This document shows, piece by piece, positions 1,369 through 12,100 of a stretch of 12,100 bases of DNA (its first letter is position 1; each line of letters begins with the position of its first letter). Under the pieces are notes generated by a model. It saw only the letters and a list, made by a program, of their open reading frames with translations, searched no databases and was not told where the DNA came from. This stretch comes from a virus. Its lineage: Duplodnaviria > Heunggongvirae > Uroviricota > Caudoviricetes. Location: IMG/VR virus record IMGVR_UViG_2711768031_000001; one strand, written 5' to 3'. Position numbers and translations under genes: made by a program.

Positions 1369-1444
1369 GCCGATATAGCTCAGTTGGTAGAGCAGCGCAT
1401 TCGTAATGCGAAGGTCGTAGGTTCGACTCCTATTATCGGCACCA
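1369..1444 (+). tRNA. thrW: tRNA-Thr (anticodon CGT), 76 nt with encoded CCA
   Basis: Sequence GCCGATATAGCTCAGTTGGTAGAGCAGCGCATTCGTAATGCGAAGGTCGTAGGTTCGACTCCTATTATCGGCACCA has a 7-bp acceptor stem (GCCGATA/TATCGGC), D-loop AGCTCAGTTGGTAGAGC, anticodon loop TTCGTAATG and T-arm GGTTCGACTCC. It matches E. coli thrW as recalled. Confidence 0.95.
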
Positions 1445-6304: not shown

Positions 6305-6463
6305 TTAGTGATTCAGACCGTTGCCGCGTCCGTCGAGAAAAACTTCCACGAGCAAGTCACGGGTATAAGTGCGCTCAATGCCGCGATGCAGATAAAGTCG
6401 TCCGCGTAAATTAGCTGATGCAGTCCAGGTACCATCTTTGTGTTTGACCAGCATTCCTGGCAT
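6305..6463 (-). CDS. Kil-position small protein (52 aa from ATG 6463; alternative 68 aa from ATG 6511); function not established
   Basis: Open frame ending 75 nt upstream of the gam start. ATG at 6463 is preceded by GAGGTG at 7 nt; ATG at 6511 is preceded by AGGAG at about 6 nt. The Kil assignment rests on position relative to gam only; I cannot confirm sequence similarity. Confidence 0.45.
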   Translation of the reverse strand: MPGMLVKHKDGTWTASANLRGRLYLHRGIERTYTRDLLVEVFLDGRGNGLNH

Positions 6464-6476
6464 GACCGCACCTCGA

Positions 6477-6716
6477 TTAACGGTCTGCGTTCCGTAATGT
6501 TGATGAACCATAAAAAACTCCTGCCCGTAAGCTGGGCTGCTGAACATATTGAGACTTCTGCGCGTATTCAGGCGGTGGATGGCCGCCGGTTGTCATAACT
6601 AAGTCGCCTCGTTGAAGCGACTGAGGTATGAAGTGTTGAGTTGATTTCAGCTGGTCACACCGACGTTCACGCGTCCGTTTCACCCCTCGCACTCCCCGGA
6701 GCCTGCTGAAATTCAA
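6477..6716 (-). CDS. candidate N-like antiterminator with arginine-rich N-terminus (low confidence; non-ATG start)
   Basis: First ORF downstream of the putative pL. Frame opens at TTG 6716 with possible GTG starts at 6692 and 6683, the latter 8 nt after GGGGAG. The N-terminus (RLRGVRGVKRTRERRCDQLKS) resembles the arginine-rich RNA-binding motif of lambda N (QTRRRERRAEKQAQW). Stop at 6477-6479 lies just upstream of the Kil-position ORF. Confidence 0.3.
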   Translation of the reverse strand: MNFSRLRGVRGVKRTRERRCDQLKSTQHFIPQSLQRGDLVMTTGGHPPPEYAQKSQYVQQPSLRAGVFYGSSTLRNADR

Positions 6717-6789
6717 GCTGCGGATCTAAGCGGTCATCGCAACGGTGAATCAGGTGGTTGCCGTATCGTTGTGTTGTTGCGATATGGTG

Positions 6790-6840
6790 ATAATAGCTAT
6801 TGCTATTGGTGATATCAATACTTATTGCTATTAGTTGATG
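6790..6840 (-). promoter_or_regulatory. candidate pL promoter with OL operators
   Basis: On the minus strand: -35 TTGATA (plus 6813-6818), 17-bp spacer, -10 TATTAT (plus 6790-6795). Two copies of TATTGCTATT on the plus strand (heptamer TTGCTAT at 6800-6806 and 6825-6831, 25 bp apart) mirror the same motif pair in the cI-cro intergenic region. Confidence 0.4.
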
Positions 6841-6965
6841 TGTTTTGATATTAAATGTTTGATAGCAAAAAGAATTAATTTTGTGACTTGAATCGCATAG
6901 CGATAACTGAAGCGAGGTTATGGTGGTTTTTTTAACGGTGTGTGTGATGAGGGGAGGGCAAAAGA

Positions 6966-6994
6966 AAACCCGGCACGGTGGCCGGGGGCTTTTT
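6966..6994. terminator. bidirectional intrinsic terminator downstream of the 304-aa gene
   Basis: Stem CCCGGC (6969-6974), loop ACGGTG, stem GCCGGG (6981-6986). On the minus strand the stem is followed directly by TTTTCTTTT; on the plus strand by GGCTTTTTAT. It lies 25-50 nt beyond the stop (7019) of the 304-aa ORF. Confidence 0.6.
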
Positions 6995-7018
6995 ATAGTG
7001 TGTTAGGTAAATAGAATA

Positions 7019-7933
7019 TCAGCCTACTGTTCTAAAGATGAGAAGTGGTGTCATCCCATACGAATCACTTCCTCTACCAGCTTGTACCTTGACCATATCC
7101 AGGAAGGATTGTAATCCTGACTTGAGATCGTGTTCAGGGAAATCAGGGTTATTGATATTCTGATCTTGTACAGAATCTGGCAAGGCATCAATCAATCCAA
7201 TGACATGCCAGGTACCCGGTATGGTGCCACCATATTTTAAGGCTAAGTCATCAGGATTAATTGTTAAATATTCTTTATCAATAGACATCCACATCAGGTT
7301 GCCATTCTCATCAATAAAATCAACCTGGAGGATGTTGGGAACGATATTAATGAGTTTCTTAACTACACCAATGGTAAGCCCTGGAGATATCTCAATTTCA
7401 TCTGGGGTGAGTTTCCCTTTAAGCTTCGCTTTGGCTTTTGGGGGAAGGTTGACCGTGTTTAATTGTGCTTGGGCTATCTCACCAAAAATAGGCATAATTT
7501 TCTGAATAGTTGACACATCAAAAATGCGCATTTTTCCAACAGAATGAACAACTGAACCAAGATTCTCACCATTAAGTCCAGTTTTAATCATTCCTGCTTC
7601 ATCTAATTTATCGAGAAAATTAATTGGTAATGACCATGAAGCGTCGAAAGTTTTCTCTTGCGAATGTGTTAAGGTGTCGTCAGTCCCCACTTTTCCTTTA
7701 AGAATCTTGACGCTTAATTCAACGGATTTATTAGATTTATCTGTGTCAGAAGTAGTTTGTTTTACGCTCGTCACTACACCAGCATTGTGAAGCTGGGCTG
7801 TGAGGGAGCTAACGCGTACACGGTCTATGTAAAGAAAATCAAATAGTGAATCTGTGCTTTGTTGTTCGAGCTCCATTTTGCCAATCCTCTCTAAATTTTT
7901 CTTTTTCCTCGCGAATTCTTTTTTGCTTTTCAT
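7019..7933 (-). CDS. hypothetical protein of unknown function (304 aa; alternative start ATG 7876 gives 285 aa) at the rexAB-equivalent position; candidate phage-exclusion protein
   Basis: Long uninterrupted ORF in visibly AT-rich DNA between the cI stop and the putative OL/pL, on the same strand as cI. AGAGG lies about 9 nt upstream of the ATG at 7876. No catalytic or nucleotide-binding motif recognised by eye. A strong terminator follows. Confidence 0.7.
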   Translation of the reverse strand: MKSKKEFARKKKNLERIGKMELEQQSTDSLFDFLYIDRVRVSSLTAQLHNAGVVTSVKQTTSDTDKSNKSVELSVKILKGKVGTDDTLTHSQEKTFDASWSLPINFLDKLDEAGMIKTGLNGENLGSVVHSVGKMRIFDVSTIQKIMPIFGEIAQAQLNTVNLPPKAKAKLKGKLTPDEIEISPGLTIGVVKKLINIVPNILQVDFIDENGNLMWMSIDKEYLTINPDDLALKYGGTIPGTWHVIGLIDALPDSVQDQNINNPDFPEHDLKSGLQSFLDMVKVQAGRGSDSYGMTPLLIFRTVG

Positions 7934-8018
7934 CTATCTCATCGAAAAGTTGAATGAGTTCATCCACACCATGTGAAGGCGTCTCTGATTTCACTTTCTT
8001 CAAAATTTTCTTGAACAT
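7839..8018 (-). CDS. small highly charged ORF (59 aa) upstream of and overlapping the 304-aa gene
   Basis: First ATG at 8018 gives MFKKILKKVKSETPSHGVDELIQLFDEIDEKQKRIREEKEKFREDWQNGARTTKHRFTI, which is Lys/Glu-rich. The 3' end overlaps the start of the large ORF in another frame. The ORF-track extension to 8096 uses a TTG and would cover the candidate promoter. Confidence 0.35.
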   Translation of the reverse strand: MFKKILKKVKSETPSHGVDELIQLFDEIDEKQKRIREEKEKFREDWQNGARTTKHRFTI

Positions 8019-8049
8019 GATGATTTTCCATAGAGAACTGACTGTACAA

Positions 8050-8078
8050 ATTATGTTCTCTTTGTCACATGAAAGCAA
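8050..8078 (-). promoter_or_regulatory. candidate sigma70 promoter for the accessory two-gene insert
   Basis: On the minus strand: -35 TTGCTT (plus 8073-8078), 17-bp spacer, -10 CATAAT (plus 8050-8055), about 30 nt upstream of the small-ORF ATG at 8018 and downstream of the cI stop. Confidence 0.3.
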
Positions 8079-8167
8079 CTGTACCAGGACAAGCAAAGTG
8101 TGTCTCCAAAGATCGCTTTAATCACATGTTACAGCTTTTTTGTCAGCTTTGGTCCCATGAAGACGCT

Positions 8168-8860
8168 TTACCCATGCTTCCTGTATGTCTGCGGCATGCT
8201 CCCAATAACCTTACCGAAGATGAACACCCGGTTCATCTCGTCTTTCTCGATCGGGTCCCACGGTGAGTAGCTTTTGTTATCAGAGATGACCAGCAGCTTA
8301 TCCTTCATCATTTGCAGGCGCTTTACATGGGCTGTGTCGTCGTACAGAAACGCATAGATACCATCACCGTCGAAAGATTTAACTGTGATATCAACGAACA
8401 GCAGATCACCTGGTTCGATCGTTCCTGACATGCTGTCACCACGCACGTTAATGATGCGGATATTTTCCGCCTTCCTGCCATCGAACATGTGACGAGCATC
8501 GTCAAACGAGTACTCAACCGAGCGTAGAACTTCTACAAACTCACGGTTGATTACACCCGGCCCGGCACTGACTTCTATATCAAGAACGTCAATCTTGAAG
8601 TATTTTGAATGGCTGACAGCAGGCTTCCCTGATTGTTGACCGTCATTTCTCATCGGGCCTATGCCTGATGAGAGCCATTCTGTTCGAACACCCAATGCAT
8701 TAGCTATTTCAACAATTTTTGTTGAGCCGCGCGCGTTGCCGCTTGTCAGTCTCCAGATTGTGGGTTGAGCTACGCCAGACGCCTTTGCAAGAGCGCCTTG
8801 AGACATTCCAGATTGTTCCATCGCTAGGTTTAAGCGATCAGCAAGAGTTTCTTTTTTCAT
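8168..8860 (-). CDS. cI: CI-type prophage repressor (N-terminal XRE helix-turn-helix, C-terminal S24 LexA-like autopeptidase)
   Basis: From ATG 8860: MKKETLADRLNLAMEQSGMSQGALAKASGVAQPTIWRL (helix-turn-helix), a candidate Ala-Gly cleavage site in EVSAGPG, Ser nucleophile in VRGDSMSGTIEPGDLLFVD and Lys in HVKRL. The ATG at 8860 has no Shine-Dalgarno and sits 10 nt after a TATAAA -10, consistent with a near-leaderless pRM transcript. The ORF-track start at 8896 is probably too long. Confidence 0.88.
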   Translation of the reverse strand: MKKETLADRLNLAMEQSGMSQGALAKASGVAQPTIWRLTSGNARGSTKIVEIANALGVRTEWLSSGIGPMRNDGQQSGKPAVSHSKYFKIDVLDIEVSAGPGVINREFVEVLRSVEYSFDDARHMFDGRKAENIRIINVRGDSMSGTIEPGDLLFVDITVKSFDGDGIYAFLYDDTAHVKRLQMMKDKLLVISDNKSYSPWDPIEKDEMNRVFIFGKVIGSMPQTYRKHG

Positions 8861-8970
8861 AAGTTTTAATTTATACGCTTGCGTATTGATGGTCAAAACA
8901 CGTTTTGCTATTGCTTGGATTAATACGCATTGCTATTATTCATTCATTGCAATACCAATAGGAATTGATA
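8861..8970. promoter_or_regulatory. OR region: divergent pRM/pR promoters with operator motifs
   Basis: pR on the plus strand: -35 TTGCTT 8911-8916, 17-bp spacer, -10 TATTAT 8934-8939. pRM on the minus strand: -35 TTGACC at about 8890-8895 and -10 TATAAA at about 8870-8875. Perfect 14-bp palindromes ATACGCTTGCGTAT (8873-8886) and CAAAACACGTTTTG (8894-8907). TTGCTAT heptamers at 8905-8911 and 8930-8936, 25 bp apart as in the OL region. Confidence 0.55.
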
Positions 8971-9222: not shown

Positions 9223-9768
9223 ATGACTATGCAACCACTTACATACCAACAGACTAGCGGATTTAGCCCGACTGCGGTGATAAATCGTTCTCAAACAAAA
9301 CAGGCGCCAGGCCACGAAAAAATCCGTGATGCCGTTCGCGCCTGGTCGGCTGCAGATAATCAGGATGTTGTTGCCGCACTCATTGTGAATGAGTATCGGG
9401 AGCAGGGCGGCGGCACCATCGATTTCCCTGATGATGTCAGCCGTGCACGCCAGAAGCTGTTCCGCTTCCTCGATAACAAATTCGATTCTGAAAAATACCG
9501 AAATAACGTGCGTGAACTGACCCCGGCAATTCTGGCGGTACTACCGCTGGAATATCGCGGCCACCTGGTTGAGCAGGATAGCTACATGGCTCGGCTGGCT
9601 GAAATGGAAAAGGAACTCAGTGAGGCAAAACAGGCTGTCATTCTCAACGCACCACGCCACCAGAAACTGAAGGAAATTAGTGAAGGTATTGTGTCGATGT
9701 TTCGTGTGGACCCAGATCTGGCTGGTCCACTGATGGCGATGGTCACCACCATGCTGGGGGCAATATGA
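9223..9768 (+). CDS. YdaT-like protein at the CII position (181 aa; alternative start ATG 9229)
   Basis: Translation contains EYREQGGGTIDFPDD ... LTPAILAVLPLEYRGHL, resembling the EEYLRQGGG ... LIPAILAILPRELRHRL region of Rac YdaT as recalled. It immediately follows the YdaS-like gene. Confidence 0.7.
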   Translation: MTMQPLTYQQTSGFSPTAVINRSQTKQAPGHEKIRDAVRAWSAADNQDVVAALIVNEYREQGGGTIDFPDDVSRARQKLFRFLDNKFDSEKYRNNVRELTPAILAVLPLEYRGHLVEQDSYMARLAEMEKELSEAKQAVILNAPRHQKLKEISEGIVSMFRVDPDLAGPLMAMVTTMLGAI

Positions 9769-11482: not shown

Positions 11483-11781
11483 CGGGCAAAGAGGCAATTA
11501 TTCATTACCTGGGGACGCATAAGAGCTTCTGTGCACAGGACGTTGCCGCGGTAACAGGCGCAACCGTAACCAGCATAAATCAGGCTGCGGCTAAAATGGC
11601 GCGGGCAGGAATCCTGGTCGTTGATGGTAAGGTCTGGCGAACGGTGTATTACCGGTTCGCTACCAGAGAAGAATGGGAAGGAAAGGTGAGCACGAATCTG
11701 ATTTTTAAGGAGTGTCGCCAGAGTGCCGCGATGAAACGGGTATTGAGGGTATATAAAAGAACATCAATGGGAACACAATGA
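11479..11781 (+). CDS. ren: Ren (Rex-exclusion resistance protein)
   Basis: 100-aa translation (MTGKEAIIHYLGTHKSFCAQDVAAVTGATVTSINQAAAKMARAGILVVDGKVWRTVYYRFATRE...) matches lambda Ren as recalled. The start overlaps the P stop in an ATGA arrangement. Confidence 0.9.
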   Translation: MTGKEAIIHYLGTHKSFCAQDVAAVTGATVTSINQAAAKMARAGILVVDGKVWRTVYYRFATREEWEGKVSTNLIFKECRQSAAMKRVLRVYKRTSMGTQ

Positions 11782-11848
11782 TGAAACAGGTGAGTTGAGT
11801 TCAAACTGTAGTACAATTCTCTCCAGTTTGAACAGGAAAGAATATGCT

Positions 11849-12079
11849 ATGAACCCTTATATTTATCTTGGTGGTGCAATACTTGCAGAGGTCATTGGTA
11901 CAACCTTAATGAAGTTTTCAGAAGGTTTTACACGGTTATGGCCATCTGTTGGTACAATTATTTGTTATTGTGCATCATTCTGGTTATTAGCTCAGACGCT
12001 GGCTTATATTCCTACAGGGATTGCTTATGCTATCTGGTCAGGAGTCGGTATTGTCCTGATTAGCTTACTGTCATGGGGA
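11849..12079 (+). pseudogene. emrE: emrE (small multidrug resistance transporter), truncated after codon 77 by an IS2 end
   Basis: Hand translation from ATG 11849 gives MNPYIYLGGAILAEVIGTTLMKFSEGFTRLWPSVGTIICYCASFWLLAQTLAYIPTGIAYAIWSGVGIVLISLLSWG, matching E. coli EmrE as recalled. After SWG the reading frame continues as WICPYIS rather than the expected FFGQRLDL, coinciding with the IS2 terminal repeat. Confidence 0.8.
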
Positions 12080-12100
12080 TGGATTTGCCCCTATATTTCC
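12080..12100. mobile_element. terminal inverted repeat of IS2 (first 21 nt of the element; remainder outside the window)
   Basis: TGGATTTGCCCCTATATTTCC matches the IS2 terminal inverted repeat as I recall it (TGGATTTGCCCCTATATTTCCAGACA...). It begins exactly where the emrE reading frame departs from the EmrE sequence. Confidence 0.6.

Follow-up and report, generated by a model that had tools for sequence, protein, structure and literature searches.

A two-gene DUF6414 cassette beside the repressor gene of an Escherichia coli lambdoid prophage

Between the CI-type repressor gene and the pL-like promoter of a lambdoid prophage of Escherichia coli lies a swappable, AT-rich cassette that encodes a protein of the Pfam family DUF6414 and, overlapping its gene on the upstream side, a tiny conserved partner. 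Here, we describe a computational analysis of this cassette as it occurs in IMG/VR record IMGVR_UViG_2711768031_000001, a stretch of 12,100 nucleotides (nt; hereafter the window) that forms the left end of the prophage, integrated next to proA and a tRNA gene. Sequence comparisons indicate that the cassette is probably a variant of the phage defense or toxin-antitoxin cargo that many mobile elements carry. In the model that we favor, to which we assign a probability of about one half, the small protein restrains the DUF6414 protein and helps to repress the promoter of the pair, and the two would constitute a toxin-antitoxin-like module for abortive infection or exclusion.

In phage lambda, the lysogen-expressed slot downstream of cI holds the exclusion genes rexAB. 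A counterpart in the window had been proposed in an annotation drawn up from its letters alone (the original prediction), which placed an exclusion-type cargo site between a repressor gene ending at 8168 and a putative pL near 6790-6840. Both landmarks were borne out: the repressor is of the CI type, with HTH_3 and Peptidase_S24 domains, and a pL-like promoter lies in the predicted interval (Table 1).

The DUF6414 gene and its partner

The larger protein had been said to belong to no recognizable family, which proved wrong. It matches Pfam DUF6414 (PF19952) at 41.1 bits (E = 2.4e-10; profile positions 2-245 of 283), the gathering threshold being a whole-protein score of 25 bits; it also falls in phrog_9699, and RefSeq names the product a DUF6414 family protein. 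A profile search of 1.84 billion cluster representatives recovered 1421 proteins at E ≤ 1e-3 and 470 at E ≤ 1e-30; since these are representatives, the figure means that about 1400 clusters at 50% identity match the clade profile. Among the matches listed, lengths range from 257 to 350 residues, one 178-residue fragment excepted, and nearly all align end to end. No match to the protein was found in PADLOC 2.0.0 or NCBIfam. A weak match to DUF7399 was judged to be noise, and GiPD474 of Gifsy-1, an ATPase, is unrelated. The lack of a transmembrane segment, noted originally, was confirmed by a maximum Kyte-Doolittle window of 1.33.

Two open reading frames (ORFs) had been proposed on the minus strand, one of 304 codons (7019-7933) with an alternative start at 7876, the other of 59 codons (7839-8018), and both exist. 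For the larger ORF the 304-residue form is unlikely, and the alternative start, which yields 285 residues, is most likely the true one: RefSeq annotates the ATG at 7876, the phrog_9699 alignment begins at residue 21 of the 304-residue form, and homologues start at the equivalent methionine. The extension peculiar to the longer form falls in a Lys/Glu-rich stretch where more than one frame stays open; a match of this form to HTH_27 (E = 0.011, below threshold) lies partly in the spurious extension and is noise. A good Shine-Dalgarno sequence, GAGGA, is found within the small ORF, 8 nt 5' of ATG 7876, and the two ORFs overlap by 38 nt, which suggests translational coupling. On the comparative evidence both ORFs are real genes, the large one because it has 1421 relatives at the cluster level and the small one because it bears the mark of purifying selection: over its non-overlapping part, in three lineages, the ratio of nonsynonymous to synonymous substitution rates is 0.13-0.26 in frame versus 0.5-1.85 in the other two frames.

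The small protein matches phrog_29688 end to end and no Pfam family. Weak matches to PhoR and LuxU were judged to be noise, as was a PADLOC match to PDC-S46 (E = 0.004) that arises from a Lys/Glu-rich stretch of a 719-position profile. Its pairing with DUF6414 genes is conserved. In all 17 full-length genome loci recovered from contigs representing one genome per species, an ORF of 55-75 codons has its stop 11-38 nt within the DUF6414 gene. The sources span several phyla and include Kluyvera, Citrobacter, Scandinavium, Nitratireductor, Rhizobium, Nitrobacter, Neisseria, Alistipes, a deltaproteobacterium and an acidobacterium. A small ORF placed in this way also occurs in at least 48 of 51 IMG/VR loci, in Moraxella phage Mcat17 and, unannotated, in Bordetella phage vB_BaM-IFTN4, and one adjoins the DUF6414 gene in Acinetobacter phages. 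Across the 17 loci the tail of the small protein takes the form G-A-R-x-x-x-x-[RK]-F-[RT]-[LIV], basic and then hydrophobic. The glycine codon of this tail contains the start codon of the DUF6414 gene, and its last codons encode, in the other frame, the conserved S-x-x-S-[VL]-[YF]-D with which the DUF6414 protein begins. Because of this overlap, read directly in the sequences, part of the tail conservation may be a dual-coding constraint.

Promoter, cassette exchange and carriers

The insert had been described by eye as AT-rich (35-40% GC versus about 50%), and windowed computation agrees: GC content is 0.391 over the two genes (7019-8018) versus 0.496 in the rest of the window, and 0.37-0.40 over 6750-8100 versus about 0.51 on either side. 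In every host examined the module has 38-40% GC and its flanks 51-56%. The cassette is self-contained: it comprises a promoter framed by a palindrome, the 59-codon ORF, the overlapping 285-codon ORF, and a terminator.

A promoter belonging to the module itself had been suggested within 8050-8078, and the conserved elements TTGCTT and CATAAT fall inside this interval. The footprint emerged when the 60-95 nt that precede the small ORF were aligned across diverged loci. CATAAT (TATAAT in locus L087) precedes the small ORF in 21 of 24 distinct upstream sequences, and TTGnnn lies 17 bp upstream of the -10 box in every locus inspected by eye, the flanks being unrelated. A consensus scan had picked GTGACA-16-TACAGT instead, but related loci conserve TTGnnn-17-CATAAT and not this pair, which was therefore discarded. 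A palindrome spanning the -10 box is kept in enterobacterial loci, and its arms co-vary in diverged ones, reading AAGGAAC/GTTCCTT in L056, GGAACA/TGTTCC in L060 and TGTAT/ATACA in L087. We interpret this arrangement as a putative sigma-70 promoter overlapped by an operator; as the specificity of the operator moves with the module, one of the module's own proteins may be the autoregulator. Since the left arm of the palindrome precedes the conserved -10 box, we do not favor an RNA hairpin as its explanation, although one could form in cI read-through transcripts.

Read-through from cI is likely, since the scan predicted no terminator between cI and the module. At the other end, the strong bidirectional terminator of the original prediction corresponds to a hairpin at 6969-6986, which the scan scores as a terminator on both strands and which would end cI and module transcripts before pL. 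It is kept with the module in other backbones and is also common to sister phages that carry other cargo.

The cassette behaves as an exchangeable unit. IMG/VR locus L054, which represents the same prophage, is 97-98% identical to the window at 11754-8172 and 6986-3170, and from the cI stop to the terminator it holds an allele of the same module with 52% amino acid identity. Prophages with other backbones share a homologous unit that extends from 8080 to 6948-6955, that is, from the promoter to just beyond the terminator. The region is 100% identical in five complete E. coli genomes and 99.4% identical in two more (7 of 5426 in all). At the DNA level it is absent from deposited phage genomes, whose matches end exactly at 6986. 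Two sister phages, PhiR68_2 and Perceval, match the pL side as far as this point and have an unrelated pair in the slot. That pair (PhiR68_2, L088 3786-5241; Perceval, L089 3792-5342) consists of a protein of about 340 residues and one of 149-168 residues, the latter annotated as transmembrane in Perceval, and is rexAB-like in shape; neither protein has a Pfam or PADLOC match, and we regard the two as another candidate exclusion pair.

Part of the interval 6500-8900 is matched in 2225 complete E. coli genomes, and in many of these the cI-to-kil slot is empty. Elsewhere it contains an MqsA-like antitoxin with a SecB-like chaperone, an ASCH-domain protein, DUF7946, DUF6932, a PP2C phosphatase with a Ser/Thr kinase, a BamE-like lipoprotein, or hypothetical pairs. 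Because cargo varies in this way among related prophages, the slot is a cargo hotspot, in keeping with the exclusion-type site originally envisaged. The expectation that homologues would also lie next to repressors held in 43 of 72 loci, in which the gene directly upstream on the same strand encodes a repressor. At least four unrelated types are represented: a lambda-CI-like S24 type, a second S24 type, the short HTH_3 type of Rac-like prophages, and the repressor of a Bordetella phage.

The module is not confined to this position. In Moraxella phages it adjoins tail genes, and in Nitratireductor (L013) and two uncultured alphaproteobacteria (L026 and L018) the pair resides inside an element of the IS1595 family of insertion sequences (IS). 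The 2.1-kb unit consists of a transposase gene, the small ORF and the DUF6414 gene within terminal inverted repeats of 25-29 nt that share the sequence ~GGyAkTTATATACGTGyTTGACC; in L013 and L026 the transposase gene and the small ORF share 4 nt, the stop of the former overlapping the start of the latter. Among 77 flanking ORFs at 14 non-enterobacterial loci, the commonest neighbors are IS1595 transposases (six) and integrases (three), with no recurrent defense genes. A search of plasmids for the module returned a single match, a mislabelled Klebsiella chromosome.

Table 1. Coordinates of the cassette, its signals and other features (window positions unless a locus is named)
Feature	Position	Strand	Remarks
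Swappable cargo cassette	6987-8171	minus	between cI stop codon and terminator hairpin
Small partner gene	7839-8018	minus	59 residues, basic (isoelectric point 9.4), charged; conserved tail ...GARTTKHRFTI
DUF6414-family gene	7019-7876	minus	285 residues, acidic (isoelectric point 5.1), no transmembrane segment
Module promoter (putative)	8050-8078	minus	-35 TTGCTT (8078-8073), 17-bp spacer, -10 CATAAT (8055-8050)
Palindrome AGAGAAC-N16-GTTCTCT	8032-8061	minus	spans -10 box and start region; operator-like
Intrinsic terminator (scan)	6960-6986	minus	stem 6986-6969, then T-run; also a plus-strand terminator
CI-type repressor gene	8168-8896	minus	HTH_3 and Peptidase_S24; directly upstream of module, same strand
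pL-like promoter TTGATA-17-TATTAT	6818-6790	minus	3' of terminator, amid repeated operator-like sequences
IS1595-borne units	L013 3836-5964; L026 3844-5940; L018 2216-4264		in other contigs
proA	1-1254
tRNA gene	1369-1441		tRNA-Thr by annotation in identical RefSeq locus
Integrase	1459-2622
exo, bet, gam, kil	kil 6305-6547	minus
cro-like, YdaT-like, O, P and ren genes		plus	beyond CI-type repressor gene

Kinship with DolA and candidate roles of the pair

DUF6414 is the Pfam family of DolA, which together with DolB forms Dodola (Millman et al., 2022), a validated defense system that protects B. subtilis and S. thermophilus. Because the large protein belongs to this family, the idea of a defense role gains a real but remote link. 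As a positive control, the experimentally verified DolA of B. cereus FM1 (taken from Table S2 in the preprint by Millman et al.) scored 78 bits on DUF6414 and 1.1e-76 on the PADLOC DolA model. The latter matched neither the window protein nor any of 144 clade members tested. The clade profile gave about -1 bit on DolA, and hhalign of the 144-sequence clade against 72 DolA relatives returned a probability of 0.5% (E = 0.11). The best E value between the two groups in comparisons of hidden Markov models (HMMs) was 0.003; hhalign with single sequences and profiles and cross-hmmsearch to DolA were all insignificant. Since the DolA model misses the clade and the profile comparisons are insignificant, sequence comparison puts the window protein on a remote branch of the Pfam family that it shares with DolA.

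The pair resembles Dodola in that both large proteins exceed the DUF6414 gathering threshold, are of similar size (285 residues versus 256 for DolA), are encoded in two-gene operons with overlapping genes and, in predicted models, have a compatible order of secondary structure at the N-terminus and in the C-terminal half. It differs in that its partner is a 59-residue basic protein encoded upstream, whereas that of Dodola is a ClpB-like AAA+ ATPase of about 360-390 residues encoded downstream, in that the DolA-specific HMM and profile-profile comparison see no similarity, and in its hosts, mainly Proteobacteria and their temperate phages rather than Firmicutes. The shared family and the compatible order of elements would suit Dodola in its canonical form or a degenerate remnant of it. 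However, this explanation is refuted as stated and keeps next to no probability, because DolB is missing and the DolA model failed. No ClpB-like AAA_2 gene lies within 5 kb in any locus screened, nor did a Walker-A screen of 24 loci detect an adjacent Clp-like ATPase, whereas at true DolA loci an AAA_2 gene follows with a 4-nt overlap; in turn, Dodola loci have no comparable small upstream ORF.

An AlphaFold2 model of the large protein, built from the 144-sequence alignment, reached a predicted local distance difference test score (pLDDT) of 91.6 and a predicted template modeling score of 0.83. Its N-terminal half (about residues 11-120) runs strand, helix, long hairpin (37-51/64-78), helix and two strands, an order that reads as an OB-like topology in the model. 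The hairpin has 15+15 residues and a low-confidence tip, and the C-terminal half is alpha/beta. OB-fold proteins are nucleic-acid binders built on a five-stranded beta-barrel capped by a helix, and the model shows a tentative similarity of this kind to single-stranded DNA-binding and replication proteins. Ten residues are nearly invariant: D13, D18, R21, D78, D120, W196, W223, D230, R268 and R282. Foldseek searches of PDB and BFVD returned nothing significant, and sequence-profile searches of PDB with both clades gave noise only; beyond the OB-like domain, the predicted fold is without a solved relative. The DolA model is poorer (pLDDT 71), with low confidence at residues 24-72, and shows an N-terminal strand and helix and, in the C-terminal half, a helix, two strands, a helix, a strand, helices and a final strand. 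Over about residues 24-72, DolA relatives display near-perfect hydrophobic/polar alternation across some 30 positions, whereas the equivalent stretch of the window clade, 40-61 residues long and rich in Ser, Gly, Thr and Ala, alternates only at the tip. The alternation in the DolA clade resembles that of membrane-inserting or strongly amphipathic beta-hairpins and may bear on the mechanism of Dodola.

We propose that the cassette is accessory "moron" cargo, that the lysogen expresses it from the sigma-70 promoter of the module, probably with a contribution from cI read-through, and that translational coupling through the 38-nt overlap would yield the two proteins in a fixed ratio. The small protein would bind the DUF6414 protein and keep it inactive and, alone or in the complex, would repress the promoter through the palindrome straddling the -10 box. 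Infection by another phage would remove or titrate the small protein. The freed DUF6414 protein might then act on nucleic acid through its OB-like N-terminal domain and long Ser/Thr/Gly-rich beta-hairpin (the membrane being a less likely target), and phage replication or cell growth would stop. The tail of the small protein may resemble the MuA-type C-terminal ClpX recognition signal. If this resemblance is real, a host unfoldase would, by analogy, replace the possible part of Dodola's own Clp-like ATPase.

The architecture is that of type II toxin-antitoxin loci: a small gene upstream runs into a larger one downstream, the promoter is overlain by a palindrome, and a small basic product is paired with a larger acidic one. 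As with toxin-antitoxin pairs, the genes are found on prophages and transposable elements, and alleles diverge strongly between otherwise identical elements. The likeness is confined to architecture, for neither protein matches a known toxin or antitoxin family and the small protein has no recognizable DNA-binding fold. Carriage as a passenger of IS1595, which is common for toxin-antitoxin and defense genes, supports the toxin-antitoxin-like model. It also makes an addiction or toxin-antitoxin role as live a reading as defense, and the main rival, which is not exclusive of the model, is a pure addiction module that stabilizes its carrier, whether prophage or IS1595, by killing or arresting cells upon loss. 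The overlapping small and large genes with a palindrome at the promoter, the position between the terminal inverted repeats of IS1595 elements, and chromosomal neighbors that are transposases and integrases rather than defense genes would all fit this explanation. We nevertheless consider the pure form unlikely, as the pair recurs in a repressor-adjacent, presumably lysogen-expressed slot typical of exclusion genes, is linked by family to DolA, and has undergone an allelic replacement in an isogenic prophage that suggests diversifying pressure.

A housekeeping or regulatory accessory of the prophage, one that modulates, for instance, induction, repressor stability or recombination by means of an OB-fold DNA-binding protein would accord with the tight linkage to repressor genes and with the similarity of the model to single-stranded DNA-binding and replication proteins. 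Such a housekeeping role is improbable, however, for a dispensable cassette that most related prophages lack or replace with unrelated cargo and that so few complete E. coli genomes possess; its occurrence next to tail genes and inside IS elements does not suit a function within the immunity circuitry either. A membrane-attacking effector, in which DUF6414 oligomers insert the hairpin and permeabilize the membrane, an abortive infection in the manner of gasdermins or beta-pore formers, and the small protein serves as inhibitor, seems very improbable. In its favor are the long hairpin with its low-confidence tip, the Ser/Gly/Thr/Ala-rich composition and variable length of the hairpin region across the clade, and the strict alternation in the low-confidence segment of the DolA clade.

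Two other repressor-adjacent exclusion systems were compared with the pair. It shares with lambda rexAB the slot and orientation, with cI upstream and a terminator before pL downstream, two dispensable genes and, presumably, expression in the lysogen. RexAB itself was ruled out, because neither protein matches a RexA or RexB family in Pfam and neither is a membrane protein, whereas RexB spans the membrane several times; the cassette also differs in having its own conserved promoter. BstA, which the original prediction had brought up, is reportedly a single protein of about 300 residues with an N-terminal KilA-N-like domain. Similar size and a repressor-adjacent position in a prophage are points in common, but the suggestion found no support: there was no KilA-N or BstA-type match in Pfam and none in PADLOC 2.0.0 (in which the presence of a BstA model is unverified), the predicted fold is unrelated, and the conserved partner gene argues for a two-component system, BstA being a single-gene one.

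We tentatively suggest that the pair may represent a widespread unnamed two-gene anti-phage (or addiction) system, distinct from Dodola, that occupies the repressor-adjacent slot in temperate phages of Proteobacteria and Bacteroidota and rides as a passenger in IS1595 elements. If so, its mechanism would be new, given a fold without a solved relative; an attractive version would have the small protein as a labile inhibitor and a host unfoldase in place of Dodola's Clp-like ATPase. The DUF6414 label is already present in RefSeq, and in the literature searched DUF6414 is named in a single paper, in connection with Dodola, while accession numbers and PHROG identifiers are not named. Nothing there appears to describe the conserved partner, the structure of the cassette, its preference for repressor-adjacent sites or its carriage by IS1595. 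As the cassette shows, the DUF6414 component of Dodola has a much larger, mostly proteobacterial sister clade that lacks the Clp-like ATPase and is paired with a tiny conserved protein. This clade moves, in the immunity regions of prophages and within an insertion sequence, as a ready-made unit equipped with promoter, operator-like palindrome and terminator. Should the pair prove protective, it would add a compact 1.1-kb system to the defense catalogue, open a tractable route to the Dodola mechanism in E. coli, and mark the cI-to-pL slot of this prophage group as a defense or toxin-antitoxin hotspot comparable to those of P2 and P4. Should it not, it would still be a clean example of an addiction-type pair borne by IS elements and prophages.

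The surrounding prophage

The tRNA gene, the sole Rfam match in the whole window, sits between proA and the prophage integrase gene and is therefore the likely attachment site. In strain 13TMH22, which is otherwise identical, the integrase gene, intact in the window, is split by an IS4-like element of the ISVsa5 family.

No N-like antiterminator gene is evident at 6548-6790, between kil and the pL-like promoter, and the Rfam scan placed no RNA family there. The only ORF between the pL-like promoter and kil (6477-6716) has a TTG start and encodes 79 residues without a family match. The annotation of phage Perceval has a longer "phi80 Kil homolog" over the stretch that matches 6548-6790.

Past ren, GC content drops again to 0.39 (11700-12100), and the matching RefSeq locus continues with genes for an 84-residue protein and a 472-residue hypothetical protein on the opposite strand. 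The drop may mark a second AT-rich insert of cargo, situated in the nin region and mostly outside the window. The gene at the cII position (9223-9768) encodes a YdaT-domain protein ("toxin YdaT domain-containing protein" in RefSeq), and Rac-like prophages with the same module have a YdaS/YdaT pair at the equivalent position.

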